From Ignavibacteria bacterium (GTDB lineage: Bacteria; Bacteroidota; Ignavibacteria; Kapaibacteriales; UBA4661), in NCBI GenBank assembly GCA_013298375.1, contig JAAFHM010000002.1:1-47060 (forward strand): a stretch of 47,060 nt of DNA, in the 5' to 3' direction. A model generated the notes under the pieces. The model saw nothing but the letters and a program-made list of their open reading frames with translations, was not told the DNA's origin and did no database searches. This document shows positions 38,893 through 42,207 of this stretch, piece by piece (the first letter of the stretch is position 1; every line of letters starts with the position of its first letter). Position numbers and translations under genes: made by a program.

Positions 38893-40506
38893 ATGCCACA
38901 CCGTGTAGCCGCGCTATTGCTCGCGTTGATGACGAGTTATTTATCTGTTTTTGCTCAAGAGCCGCCATCTGGTGCGCTTGCGGGCAATCTTCCCCCACAA
39001 ACCCAACGACAAGTTTCCTTTGATTACGGCGGTAAACTCATGCGCCTGACGTGGGAATTTGAGAAGCAATTTGCCATTCTCCGCTCGTATCCCTATCTCT
39101 ATGAAGCACACCTCTTCCAAACAGCCGATACCGCCTATACGCTGGAAGTAACGCATATCGTCAATGGCAAAGTCGAACGAGAATTGAAGCCGCTCACGAT
39201 GCAAGAACTTGTCCGCATCCGCTACGAAAGCTCGGATGCAATGCGCAGTTTTGCGATGTGGGGCAATGAGGAGCGGACTGCTGTGTGGGAAGATTGGGCG
39301 CTGGGCGTGGGAACGGCTACATGGGGCTTGAGTAGTGGTCTGGTAGTAGATATTACCAATGCGGTTATGGCATCGCAAGGGCAGTCTTTTGTGTCACCAA
39401 CTCCGATATGGTACATCCCGACGCTGGCGGCAACAGGCGGATACATCTGGGCAGTCAACCAGCCTTGGTACAATCGCGCCAGTGCGACAATGTGGGGTAA
39501 TGGCTTACTGCAAGGCACCGCGCACGGTTGGGCGCTGTATTTGCTATTATCTCCTCAAGTGACGAGTGTTGGCGATTTCTTTCTTGCCGGAACAATTATG
39601 GGCGGCGTAGAAGCCGGAGCGGGCTTGGCACTAGCACACTTGCTGAACTTTAGTCCCGCGCAAAGCCAGATGATTACAGCATTTGGCGGAAGCGGCGTGT
39701 ATGTGGGCGTATTGGCGCAGTTTGCAACGGGAAATAATCTTCGTTCTGTGCCGGGCAATGATGCGGCGCGTTTGGTTGGTGCGACGACACTTATCGGCTC
39801 GGCTGTTGGAATGTGGCTTGGCAATGAAGTTGCGAAATCTCCAGCATTGACGGGCGGCGACGCGGTTGTCTTGACTACGCCCGCAGCAATTATCGGCTCT
39901 GCGCCGATCACTATTTTGTCAGCATCGCCGAATCCGACGAGCGTGCAAGTAGCAGCAGGCGCTACCATTGGTGCAATTATTGGAGGGCATCTTGTCGGAA
40001 ATGCGCTCGTGCAGAACAAAGATTTTTCCTTTTTGCAAGGGCGGATTATCAACCTAGCAAGCGCCATCGGCGGTTATTTGCCGACCTACGTTCTGAGTTC
40101 TGCCATCAATGTGGCAATTCTTAATGGACAAACGGCAAACGCTCAATCGTTGCAACTAACCTCTGCCATTGCCAGCTTGGTGGGCGGTATTGTCGGCTTT
40201 ACGATTCCCTATCTCATTTACGCCAAAGACGCTGAAGAGCAGCACCAGCGCCGTCTTGTCGCCACGGGCGCACAAGCCAATGCCGACCTTCCGCCCCGCA
40301 TCGTACCTTCAGAACGAACATGGTTTGAAAATCTTGCCGCCAACACCGATGTCCAATTTTCCCCGCTTGGTATGCTGCCCGCGCTTAGTCCTCATGCGGG
40401 TTTGGGCATAATGGGCGCAGGTGTGCCGATAATGAGTATTCGCACTATCCTTGGAAACCCAGCGCCGAAGCCGCGTTTGGAGAATGAAATCAACGAAGTT
40501 CACTAA
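38893..40506 (+). CDS. Uncharacterised glycine/alanine-rich polytopic membrane protein, paralog 1
   Basis: 537 aa from the ATG at 38893, with a GAGGAG RBS (the ORF-track start at 38887 is GTG). It has a signal peptide, an N-terminal soluble domain of ~110 aa, about 10 small-residue-rich TM helices and a conserved C-terminal motif. It is clearly homologous to the next gene. Confidence 0.7.
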   Translation: MPHRVAALLLALMTSYLSVFAQEPPSGALAGNLPPQTQRQVSFDYGGKLMRLTWEFEKQFAILRSYPYLYEAHLFQTADTAYTLEVTHIVNGKVERELKPLTMQELVRIRYESSDAMRSFAMWGNEERTAVWEDWALGVGTATWGLSSGLVVDITNAVMASQGQSFVSPTPIWYIPTLAATGGYIWAVNQPWYNRASATMWGNGLLQGTAHGWALYLLLSPQVTSVGDFFLAGTIMGGVEAGAGLALAHLLNFSPAQSQMITAFGGSGVYVGVLAQFATGNNLRSVPGNDAARLVGATTLIGSAVGMWLGNEVAKSPALTGGDAVVLTTPAAIIGSAPITILSASPNPTSVQVAAGATIGAIIGGHLVGNALVQNKDFSFLQGRIINLASAIGGYLPTYVLSSAINVAILNGQTANAQSLQLTSAIASLVGGIVGFTIPYLIYAKDAEEQHQRRLVATGAQANADLPPRIVPSERTWFENLAANTDVQFSPLGMLPALSPHAGLGIMGAGVPIMSIRTILGNPAPKPRLENEINEVH

Positions 40507-40533
40507 TCATTTTCACGTTTTTCTCATATTGCT

Positions 40534-42207
40534 ATGAAAATCTCTCGTTTGCTATCGTTTACCCTGAGTCTCGTTCTGCTGTGCGGAGCGCATCATAGCG
40601 CCTTTGCCCAAACACCGCCCGAAAGCGCTCCACCCAAAACGGCAGTCGAAGTTCAAGCGCCCTTCGACAAAGACAGCAAACTGTGGATTATCACCGAAGA
40701 AATGGAGCGGCAGTACGGCTTTTTTCCGAAATATCGCGGTGTGATTGATGCGCGATTGTTTCAACTTCCCGACTCGTCGTTTGTGCTGGAACTGACGCAG
40801 TTGCTGGGCAGTGCGCCGGAAAATACGCGCATTCGTTTGACCTTGGCGGAACTTATTGATTTGCGGAGCCGCGTCAACGATGCACTTCAACGCGGTCAGA
40901 TGCAAGGCGGCAATGCACAAGGCGGCTTTACCAATCCCTGGGCGCAATTCGCCCGCCCGCTCGATGAGCGCAGTTTGAACGATTGGGAGAAAACTTCACT
41001 CGTCATTAGCGCGACCACGCTCGGCTTGTCTTACGGTCTCTTTACCGATCTGCTCTCGCCTTCCAGTGGCAACGTCGGTTTTGGTCCCTTCAGCTCGGTT
41101 GGTGTAACGACAATCGCTGCACCGTTAGCATTTGGCGGCGGCACACTTTGGGCGGTCAATCAACCTTGGTTCACGCGCTCATCGGCGGTGATGCTGACAA
41201 ACGGCATCACGTCAGGCTTTTTACACGGTATTGCCGGATACCTCGTTGTGGCTGACCAGCAGCAAATCGAAGGACGGGCGCTCGGCATCTCCGGCGTTGT
41301 GGGAAGTGCAATAGAATCAGGAATGACGCTACGTCTGCCGGAGACACTTAATCTCAATTACGGGCAAACAAGCATTTTGGCAAATATGGGCGGAAATACC
41401 TTTTTGAGTGGTGCGCTTGCAGCATTGGCGCTGGGTGCGTTTGATGGCAATGGGAATATCAATCCGAATGGTCTTCGTTTGACGGCAGCCGCATCATTGC
41501 TGGGTTCGGCGGGCGGATATTTTCTTGGATACCGCGTTGGGCAAGGGCAGCATATAGCGCCGGGCGACGCGCTGGTATTTGATAGCCCAGCAGGATTTGC
41601 AACGCTTTTACCACTTTCCGTTGGATTTTTATCATTGCAAAACAATGGTCAAATCCCTGATATACGGTTGCTTTCGGGCTTGACGGTCGGCGCTCAGGCT
41701 CTTGGTTACGTGATTGGCAACGAACTTATTCGCAATAAAGATTTCTCCTTCGACCAAGGGCGGCAAATCAACCAAGCAGCATCGCTGGGGGTAACGATTG
41801 GCTTGATACCTCTTTACGCCGGGCGTTCTAATGGTCTCATCTTCTACGCACCAATTCTATCAGCATTGGGTGGAGCGGTGGGCTTTGGCATCGCCTACGC
41901 AAACTGCGCCAAACAAGCGGAGGAGTTCGACAAAGCCCGTCGGGAAACGACGAATACGAAATCTTCCACACTCAACGAAATGCCTGAACACCGCACCAAT
42001 ACATGGCTTGACAACCTCGCCAAGCATACCGACGTTCAGTTTTCGCCCTTTGGATTCATGGGAGGGCTGCATCCCGCTTTGGGGCTACTTAGCGCAAATA
42101 CGCCGATTGTGAGTATTCGCACCAATCTCGGTGCCGTGCAGCACGATGAAGCCGAATGGCAGCACGAGGCGATTAAACGTGAGGTTTTGAGCGCTACTCC
42201 GCGCTAA
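40534..42207 (+). CDS. Uncharacterised glycine/alanine-rich polytopic membrane protein, paralog 2
   Basis: 557 aa with the same architecture as paralog 1. Shared blocks: WAVNQPW(Y/F)xR(A/S)SA, NKDFSFxQGRxIN, TW(F/L)xNLAxxTDVQFSP(L/F)G, PI(M/V)SIRTxLG. Confidence 0.7.
   Translation: MKISRLLSFTLSLVLLCGAHHSAFAQTPPESAPPKTAVEVQAPFDKDSKLWIITEEMERQYGFFPKYRGVIDARLFQLPDSSFVLELTQLLGSAPENTRIRLTLAELIDLRSRVNDALQRGQMQGGNAQGGFTNPWAQFARPLDERSLNDWEKTSLVISATTLGLSYGLFTDLLSPSSGNVGFGPFSSVGVTTIAAPLAFGGGTLWAVNQPWFTRSSAVMLTNGITSGFLHGIAGYLVVADQQQIEGRALGISGVVGSAIESGMTLRLPETLNLNYGQTSILANMGGNTFLSGALAALALGAFDGNGNINPNGLRLTAAASLLGSAGGYFLGYRVGQGQHIAPGDALVFDSPAGFATLLPLSVGFLSLQNNGQIPDIRLLSGLTVGAQALGYVIGNELIRNKDFSFDQGRQINQAASLGVTIGLIPLYAGRSNGLIFYAPILSALGGAVGFGIAYANCAKQAEEFDKARRETTNTKSSTLNEMPEHRTNTWLDNLAKHTDVQFSPFGFMGGLHPALGLLSANTPIVSIRTNLGAVQHDEAEWQHEAIKREVLSATPR

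Follow-up and report, generated by a model that had tools for sequence, protein, structure and literature searches.

A tandem pair of diverged glycine-zipper paralogs in a Kapaibacteriales genome: candidates for an exported helical membrane assembly, tentatively placed in the outer membrane

What kind of proteins are encoded by two adjacent paralogous genes that resemble no named family, and in which membrane would they reside? The question is raised by genes A and B of an Ignavibacteria bacterium (GTDB lineage Bacteroidota; Ignavibacteria; Kapaibacteriales; UBA4661), in a stretch of 47,060 nucleotides comprising positions 1 to 47,060 of the forward strand of contig JAAFHM010000002.1 (GenBank assembly GCA_013298375.1); this whole stretch is the window that was analysed. 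A preliminary description had presented them as a tandem pair of diverged paralogs that code for large polytopic membrane proteins of no recognisable family and perhaps for a heteromeric complex. The explanation preferred here, with a probability of about 0.4, is that A and B are exported and form a helical assembly that probably lies in the outer membrane and in which the two proteins would constitute a derived hetero-oligomer; everything beyond the architecture of the proteins is deduced from sequence statistics. The argument depends on the following features.

38893..40506, plus strand: gene A, A-type paralog, ATG start, 537 aa plus stop (from the list of open reading frames, ORFs)
38893..38955, plus strand: A signal peptide, residues 1-21, MPHRVAALLLALMTSYLSVFA, followed by QEP (read from sequence)
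38998..39264, plus strand: A alpha/beta N-domain, residues ~36-124, with conserved D44, A72, D79, E85 and R110 (AlphaFold2, AF2, and family conservation)
39283..40227, plus strand: A helical core, residues 131-445, predicted ten helices forming five hairpin repeats (AF2, predicted local distance difference test score, pLDDT, 80-93; hhalign)
39523-39525, plus strand: A H211, conserved polar residue in the core
39610-39612, plus strand: A E240, conserved polar residue in the core
39859-39861, plus strand: A D323, conserved polar residue in the core
40018-40026, plus strand: A K376-D377-F378, conserved polar residues in the core
40228..40503, plus strand: A charged linker 446-480, C-terminal beta-hairpin 481-521 and 16-aa charged extension (alignment, AF2)
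40507..40533, plus strand: A-B spacer of 27 nt, no terminator (sequence)
40534..42207, plus strand: gene B, B-type paralog, 557 aa plus stop (ORF list)
within 40534..42207, plus strand: B signal peptide 1-25 (..HHSAFA, followed by QTP), N-domain ~40-120 and Gly/Gln-rich linker 121-150
within 40534..42207, plus strand: B helical core 150-460 (H231, E261, D345, K402-D403-F404) and tail 461-557
42245..42276, between the convergent B and Rieske genes, no strand assigned: GC-rich hairpin with a 14-bp stem (terminator scan, minus strand with T-run)

The ORF list and the sequence agree on two adjacent genes of 537 and 557 aa with a 27-nt spacer; an alternative GTG start at 38887 would lengthen A to 539 aa. 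Their paralogy, already proposed in the preliminary description, is plain from a BLASTP alignment at 33% identity across the full length (E 2e-77); A and B are diverged full-length paralogs, far beyond chance resemblance. Orthologues are 42-93% identical to A and 41-93% to B, and comparison with the 93%-identical orthologues of a related locus (L013) gave dN/dS ratios of 0.11 for A, 0.10 for B, and 0.05 for the adjoining asparagine synthase (AsnB), which is more conserved than either; with ratios near 0.1, A and B are therefore real genes under purifying selection. The 27-nt spacing ahead of B recurs in L013, and the terminator scan found no terminator-like site in the A-B spacer; the two genes are most simply viewed as one transcription unit and are probably co-transcribed. 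Beyond B, the hairpin at 42245-42276 has a perfect 14-bp stem (GAAGGCGCAAAAAT...ATTTTTGCGCCTTC), preceded on the plus strand by an A-run and followed by a T-rich stretch; it is likely a bidirectional intrinsic terminator that ends the A-B transcript. An Rfam scan of the window came back empty.

Structure predictions with AF2 were made for A from a 32-sequence alignment (pLDDT 74, predicted template modelling score, pTM, 0.61) and for P0055, a member of the canonical, ~450-aa form of the family (pLDDT 82, pTM 0.66). Both models follow the same plan of a hydrophobic signal, an alpha/beta domain, ten helices, a charged linker, and two short C-terminal strands, in support of the shared architecture of signal, soluble domain, helices, charged linker and tail that had originally been read from the two proteins. 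In the N-domain (A ~38-124) the predicted topology is beta-beta-alpha-beta-beta-beta-alpha, with strands at 38-41, 51-53, 69-77, 82-90, and 93-101 and helices at 54-60 and 103-124; the ten helices of the core lie within residues 131-457 of A, with pLDDT mostly 80-96. Both proteins start with cleavable-looking signals (..VFA before QEP in A, ..AFA before QTP in B), with no Cys in either, and a small-x-small site followed by Gln is present in 110 of 163 family members; the signal peptide is predicted to be of type I and to be cleaved before Gln. In Bacteroidetes and in Ignavibacterium album (Q-value 77%), signal peptidase I as a rule exposes a Gln, and this Q+1 rule is not compartment-specific (PMC5837995).

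The earlier count of about ten small-residue segments was accurate, and these segments resolve into five tandem hairpin repeats. In profile-profile comparison with hhalign, hairpins 2-5 are mutually related (probability 81-97%, E down to 1.7e-11) and hairpin 1 more weakly so; composition bias may inflate these scores, but caps, zippers and turns keep a consistent register. Each repeat opens with a phi-(S/T)-x-G-(D/Q/E) cap, and E240 takes the position of a zipper glycine in the other repeats. From these profiles, the five consecutive helix pairs appear as repeats of one glycine-zipper hairpin unit. Conservation was measured in a 174-member family alignment, in which glycines at a spacing of i, i+4(, i+8) make up the great majority of the conserved positions: G204/G208/G212, G268/G272, G302/G306/G310, G365/G369, G393/(G397), and G431/G435 are conserved in 82-99% of the members. 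The polar residues H211 (91%), E240 (93%), and D323 (96%) are conserved as well, as are D377/F378, the N-domain residues D44, D79, E85, and R110, and, in the tail, P491 and P512 (95-97% of the family). A and B each retain every family-conserved residue. The sequence blocks WAVNQPW(Y/F)xR, NKDFSFxQGRxIN, TW(F/L)xNLAxxTDVQFSP(L/F)G, and PI(M/V)SIRTxLG, which the preliminary description had singled out, were all located and are conserved in 32 orthologues; the C-terminal beta-hairpin of A reads TDVQFSPLG ... VPIMSIRTILG.

No characterised family could be assigned to these proteins, in agreement with the initial assessment. Pfam returned no match for A and, for B, TPR_19 at E 0.033, below the cutoff; NCBIfam yielded no significant match and PADLOC no match to either protein. 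Among 36 diverse family members no Pfam or NCBIfam family recurred; one member had a TMEM260-like match (E 0.014) that was not recurrent. The best match in the Protein Data Bank (PDB) by sequence (phmmer) and by profile (hmmsearch) had E 0.26. The Pfam scan and the Foldseek search with predicted models, both proposed earlier as checks, gave no confident match to a known family: with fold similarity defined as E<1e-3 and TM>0.5, the best Foldseek-PDB matches of the two AF2 models had E 0.45 and 0.14 with TM-scores <=0.33, and the non-significant neighbours were MFS, MATE, GPCR and ABC transmembrane domains and the DnaK substrate-binding domain. Literature searches turned up no account of these proteins. 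Family and fold are, on this evidence, new, lacking a database model, a solved structural analogue, and a published description. Two specific candidate functions were set aside: a GT-C glycosyltransferase, Wzy polymerase, O-antigen ligase or flippase was rejected on account of the lack of a Pfam match, the absence of GT-C folds among the Foldseek matches, and the canonical members without family 2 glycosyltransferase (GT2) neighbours; a defence-system effector was rejected for want of a PADLOC match.

The lack of a recognisable family does not make A and B orphans. Word-indexed searches recovered only ~36 clusters, each annotated as hypothetical and each derived from metagenome-assembled genomes (MAGs) of Candidatus Kapa(i)bacteria or Ignavibacteria; a broader alignment (A2) added few members and no names. 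When one genome per GTDB species was scanned, A/B-type genes turned up in only seven species of the Kapaibacteria/Ignavibacteria group. An exhaustive profile search of 1.84 billion representatives retrieved 714 clusters (at 50% identity) with E<=1e-3, 469 of them with E<=1e-10 and 151 with E<=1e-30. Most clusters consist of ~450-aa proteins that span the N-domain and the helical core, and this single-copy form is the norm in a large uncharacterised family; its genes are monocistronic and stand beside unrelated housekeeping genes, for example gdhA and mrp. The few named members come from Kapabacteria, "Chlorobi bacterium CHB2", and one "Gemmatimonadales" MAG. Judging from these sequences, the family is confined to uncultivated Kapaibacteria/Ignavibacteria-like bacteria. 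Long forms of 670-720 aa (P0047, P0049, P0042, P0044; e.g., ACOVSW_08425 and MUF71_17800) carry an extra ~200-aa N-terminal domain; two of these long paralogs, P0047 and P0049 (690-720 aa), which occur in the same kind of genomes, have lipobox-like signals (LQSC/FQSC).

That the hydrophobic segments are membrane-embedded, as first proposed, follows from their composition. Charged residues make up 5% of the helical core in A and 5-7% overall; in the least conserved third of helix positions, 37% are L, I, V, F or M, 20% are G or A, and 8% are charged, compared to 32% charged among the equally variable positions of the N-domain. The helices thus present an apolar surface, whether lipid-exposed or otherwise buried, and the helical region is therefore membrane-embedded; the charged variable positions of the N-domain suggest that this domain is soluble. 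An ordinary polytopic inner-membrane topology is doubtful, in departure from the initial description, given the combination of no strongly hydrophobic helix, no positive-inside bias, a cleavable signal, and an outer-membrane-protein-like C-terminal strand in the family. On the Hessa biological scale, applied as a simplified, position-independent 19-residue sum that excludes the signal peptide, the most hydrophobic 19-mer scores +2.9 kcal/mol in A and +2.6 kcal/mol in B; among the 174 family members the best 19-mer has a median of +2.5 kcal/mol; 6% of the members fall below +1 and 1% below 0. By comparison, the best 19-mers of the 12 inner-membrane controls, taken from this window and related loci (MFS, acyltransferase-3, FtsX, ABC transmembrane domain, NuoL-like, MrpA/D, EamA, MscS, and rhomboid proteins), all score -5.3 to +0.1.

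The signal peptide sets the topology; the N-domain, the inter-hairpin links and the C-terminal tail are therefore assigned to the periplasmic side, and the hairpin turns to the far, would-be cytoplasmic side. The far-side turns average 2.8 for K+R and 7.0 for D+E, and the periplasmic-side links average 5.2 for K+R; the corresponding K+R biases are, as expected, 23:6 in the MFS protein and 18:5 in the acyltransferase-3 of the window, against 4:7 in A and 9:5 in B. For the topology set by the signal peptide, the positive-inside rule is not obeyed. Substitutions in A between the window and L013 fall on 9 of 37 turn residues, 0 of 28 link residues, 3 of 87 N-domain residues, and 0 of 36 linker residues, a pattern that suggests a far face free to vary and a constrained periplasmic face. 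At the C-terminus, 105 of 125 canonical members (84%) have F or W as their last residue, after a V-P-phi-phi-x-phi-x-Y-R stretch in which positions -2/-4/-6 are hydrophobic and position -1 is R/K; this pattern corresponds to the beta-signal of outer-membrane proteins (OMPs) as defined in PMC13067283. Low-hydrophobicity glycine-zipper hairpins are known from the outer membrane in SlyB, YfgH, OsmB, and YiaD (bioRxiv 10.64898/2025.12.22.696046; PMC13067283). Because the helices are marginally hydrophobic, the loops defy the positive-inside rule, and the canonical C-terminus resembles an OMP-type beta-signal, the membrane in question is most likely the outer membrane.

The tandem arrangement is conserved well beyond the window. 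The order and orientation A-then-B is found in six lineages (the window, L001/L015, L003/L004/L018, L008/L009, L016, and L017) and recurs down to 42-47% identity to the window proteins. The pair is not always tandem, which had been raised as a question for the distribution analysis, since single-copy and triplet lineages exist: the deeper lineages L005/L019 and L006/L007 have one copy each, closer to B (41-46% vs 31% identity), and L013 (7995-12981) has three tandem copies, A-A'-B, in which A' is 57% identical to A and its start overlaps the A stop. Copy number thus varies between one, two and three among close lineages. In L014 (7530-9152), a single 540-aa gene, P0006, combines an A-type body with a B-type tail (..IVSIRTHVGAMEREHEEWQREAMKQDILRQSQTR) and no B follows; its origin is either recombination between A and B at the conserved TDVQFSPLG block or a chimeric assembly. 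The duplication is old and restricted to a Kapaibacteria subclade, with both copies retained and their conserved residues intact. As glycine-zipper faces mediate helix-helix association, a shift from a homo-oligomer to a hetero-oligomer would be the simplest explanation for the retained pair.

The proposed explanation combines these observations in one sequence of events. Both proteins would be exported by Sec, and their type-I signal peptides would be cleaved before Gln; the weakly hydrophobic helices would traverse SecYEG without stop-transfer and would not be retained in the inner membrane. The ~90-residue alpha/beta domain would be placed in the periplasm, and the five glycine-zipper hairpins, or ten helices, would insert into the membrane from the periplasmic side, so that the charged linker, the C-terminal beta-hairpin and the conserved caps between hairpins would lie on the periplasmic face and the variable turns on the far face. 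The C-terminal hairpin may act as a docking or assembly strand, e.g., by beta-augmentation onto the beta-barrel assembly machinery (BAM) or a partner barrel, and the GxxxG faces would pack helices within and between subunits. Whereas the ancestral single-copy protein would have been a homo-oligomer, A and B of the Kapaibacteria would form a hetero-oligomer. The buried His-Glu pair of hairpin 2 and the periplasmic polar caps (D323, K-D-F) could constitute a defined polar site, which points to a conduit for small solutes or ions, or to a ligand site, rather than to a purely scaffolding role; the periplasmic N-domain would serve this conduit or ligand site. In its most far-reaching form, this explanation would establish a new class of integral alpha-helical outer-membrane proteins that cross the periplasm and reach the outer membrane by means of a C-terminal hairpin docking on BAM or a partner barrel, and an obligate A/B helical channel in Kapaibacteria; this complete version is possible and, in our estimate, rather unlikely.

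Several observations weigh against an assembly in the outer membrane and have to be considered together with the most serious competing explanation, that A and B are polytopic inner-membrane proteins with an N-terminal signal, whether cleaved or not, a periplasmic N-domain and C-terminal tail, and ten transmembrane helices, forming a heterodimeric transporter or channel of a new family. Nearly all polytopic alpha-helical bacterial proteins known to us are inner-membrane proteins, so that the prior against an outer-membrane protein with ten helices is strong; a helical bundle with ~5% charged residues almost always belongs to the inner membrane. The predicted helices, 23-31 residues long, suit an inner-membrane location and exceed what the thinner outer membrane needs. 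The hydrophobicity sum is, as noted, a simple one, and some helices of the true inner-membrane controls are equally weak, with scores of +4 to +6; tightly packed Gly/Ala-rich helices could also insert cooperatively as oligomers. MFS, MATE and ABC transmembrane domains are among the nearest, non-significant Foldseek neighbours, and the His, Glu and Asp residues conserved within the membrane resemble the coupling sites of transporters. A and B themselves lack the terminal F/W: their internal strand, PIMSIRTIL in A and PIVSIRTNL in B, ends in L and is followed by a charged extension of 16-35 aa, and the AF2 strands at 485-489 and 514-518 of A have a low pLDDT of ~40-55. The acidic far-side turns do not match the "positive-outside" pattern of beta-barrel OMPs (PMC13067283). 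Neither hidden Markov models (HMMs), nor the hairpin profile searched against the PDB, nor Foldseek revealed a sequence or structural link to SlyB-type proteins. The heteromer is plausible from conserved adjacency alone, and no RNA-seq runs that hold the locus were found, the sequence being present in DNA metagenomes only. An inner-membrane location has difficulties of its own: none of the 174 members has a strongly hydrophobic helix, in contrast to all 12 controls, the charge bias runs counter to the positive-inside rule for the topology that the signal peptide sets, bacterial polytopic inner-membrane proteins do not usually carry a cleavable signal peptide, no inner-membrane role is known for the conserved C-terminal Y-R-F strand, and the Foldseek neighbours remain at TM-scores <=0.33 and E>=0.14. 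We regard the inner-membrane transporter or channel as a tenable but doubtful alternative, and the outer-membrane-embedded assembly is ranked slightly above such an unusual inner-membrane protein.

Two further explanations make more specific functional predictions. In two recurring gene contexts, A and B could be envelope-glycan or lipid-linked-sugar proteins (flippase, polymerase, ligase-like, or periplasmic transferase) that work with acyltransferase-3 (AcylT3) and AsnB or with a GT2: the context AcylT3-AsnB-A-B is found in the window, L013, L014, L016, L017, and the single-copy L005, and the context unk418-GT2-A-B-...-Pur_DNA_glyco-GT2 in L003, L008, and L015, three Kapaibacteria lineages in which unk418 precedes a polyprenyl-phosphate-sugar-type GT2 directly upstream of A-B. 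The GT2s are similar to polyprenyl-P-sugar synthases and AsnB, with a score below the cutoff, to the XrtA/PEP-CTERM amidotransferase; the conserved His, Glu and Asp residues could be catalytic. Yet the two contexts differ from each other, the canonical members are monocistronic beside gdhA or mrp, and AsnB, which is better conserved than A or B, scores above the threshold of the plain asparagine synthase equivalog model; neither sequence nor fold gave a match to GT-C, Wzy or flippase proteins, and the adjacency may be synteny inherited within one order. The neighbour contexts are a weak lead that hints at envelope-glycan biology, and the glycan function as such is improbable. The glycine-zipper hairpins are also the membrane element of SlyB, YfgH, OsmB, and YiaD, which raises the alternative that A and B are SlyB-like stress guards or lipid-nanodomain scaffolds, i.e., palisades of glycine zippers with a stabilising role in the outer membrane and none in transport; the lipobox-like signals of the long paralogs and isolated weak matches of single members to the Gly-zipper_YMGG (8.9e-5), Gly-zipper_Omp and YiaD models point in this direction. 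However, no Gly-zipper model was matched above threshold or recurrently, the hairpin profile fails to retrieve SlyB from the PDB, neither A nor B is a lipoprotein, their chains have ten helices each in place of a single hairpin, and the conserved buried His/Glu and the polar caps argue for a specific site; this last alternative is the least probable of those considered, and very unlikely.

The genes around A and B add context of a different kind. The preliminary description had called speculative a functional link to either of two neighbours, a toxin-antitoxin (TA) and restriction-modification (R-M) cluster upstream and a convergent cytochrome operon downstream; both links are rejected. In the 93%-identical locus L013, acyltransferase-3, asparagine synthase and A are contiguous, without orf330 and the N6-methyltransferase gene (33304-36307) and without the antitoxin/YoeB pair (38355-38851). 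Being absent there, the TA and R-M genes are recent insertions and uninformative on the function of A and B; they look like recent mobile insertions into a conserved gene string. The segment 33304-36307 comprises a 330-aa ORF and a 707-aa N6-adenine DNA methyltransferase (PADLOC MTase_II/I) with a specificity-domain-like C-terminus. The downstream Rieske/YceI/haem cluster is convergent, lies behind the terminator, and is conserved only in L013:

42315-45643, minus strand: convergent cluster of a twin-arginine-translocation (TAT) Rieske protein, a YceI-like protein, a 116-aa membrane protein, a 422-aa protein, and a 136-aa CYSCH protein

The 422-aa protein of this cluster has no Pfam match, carries an N-terminal CLNCH haem-binding motif, and ends in ...LQLHLYY; it may be a haem-bearing outer-membrane protein. 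The unk418 protein is a conserved polytopic membrane protein of ~418 aa without a Pfam or NCBIfam match (L003 7466-8722, L008 5476-6732, L015 4919-6142), and represents another uncharacterised membrane family, possibly glycan-related in function. At a greater distance, the minus strand of the window (3309-14659) holds polysaccharide and capsule genes (Polysacc_synt_2, Capsule_synth, methyltransferase, GNAT, ABC exporter), followed by a MacB-type ABC/HlyD/TolC-like efflux module; this is an ordinary envelope context.

To our knowledge, the outer membrane is thought to hold almost only beta-barrels and lipoproteins. If the preferred explanation is true, A and B would represent a multi-helix integral protein of the bacterial outer membrane, and a helical protein tied to a beta-signal-type assembly motif; they would bear on how the outer membrane is built and on how Sec discriminates between stop-transfer and pass-through helices. 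On a conservative reading, they belong to a membrane-protein family of more than 700 clusters that has a five-fold glycine-zipper repeat fold without solved analogue, is represented by no database model, and is maintained under purifying selection in the poorly known Kapaibacteria and Ignavibacteria-like bacteria. The A/B pair also offers a natural test case for the evolution of a homo-oligomer into a hetero-oligomer.

Comparison with known systems delimits what is distinctive about the two proteins. Like the MFS and MATE transporters, A and B are predicted to form a bundle of ~10-12 helices with few charges and with conserved intramembrane acidic and His residues; unlike these transporters, they have a cleavable signal, and they lack an HMM match, hydrophobic anchor helices, and a positive-inside bias, and their five-fold hairpin repeat contrasts with the 6+6 or inverted repeats of MFS and MATE proteins. 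With the beta-barrel OMPs that are substrates of BAM, the canonical family members share the C-terminal strand pattern ending in F/W and the variable far-side loops; in contrast to these barrels, the body of the A/B family is predicted to be helical (by AF2 and by the helical GxxxG periodicity), and in A and B the strand is internal, precedes a charged extension, and lacks the terminal aromatic residue. The Tim17/22/23-OEP16 (PRAT) channel proteins of organelles are likewise weakly hydrophobic helical membrane proteins, rich in small residues and GxxxG-packed, and OEP16 resides in the outer envelope membrane; this is an analogy only, as the PRAT proteins have four helices, are both eukaryotic and organellar, and show no detected homology to A and B. 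The closest parallel is found in SlyB/Pcp, YfgH, OsmB, and YiaD (Gly-zipper_Omp, Gly-zipper_YMGG, Rick_17kDa_Anti), which, like A and B, combine a low-hydrophobicity GxxxGxxxG hairpin with a periplasmic domain and are exported. The SlyB-type lipoproteins oligomerise via their zipper faces and are outer-membrane proteins though helical; for A and B both traits would have to be inferred. There is no HMM or structural match between the two groups, and the N-domain of A and B is unrelated. A SlyB-type protein has a single hairpin and is lipid-anchored at its N-terminus; in A and B, five tandem hairpins follow a type-I signal without Cys, and the two proteins also possess conserved intramembrane His and Glu residues and a C-terminal beta-hairpin.

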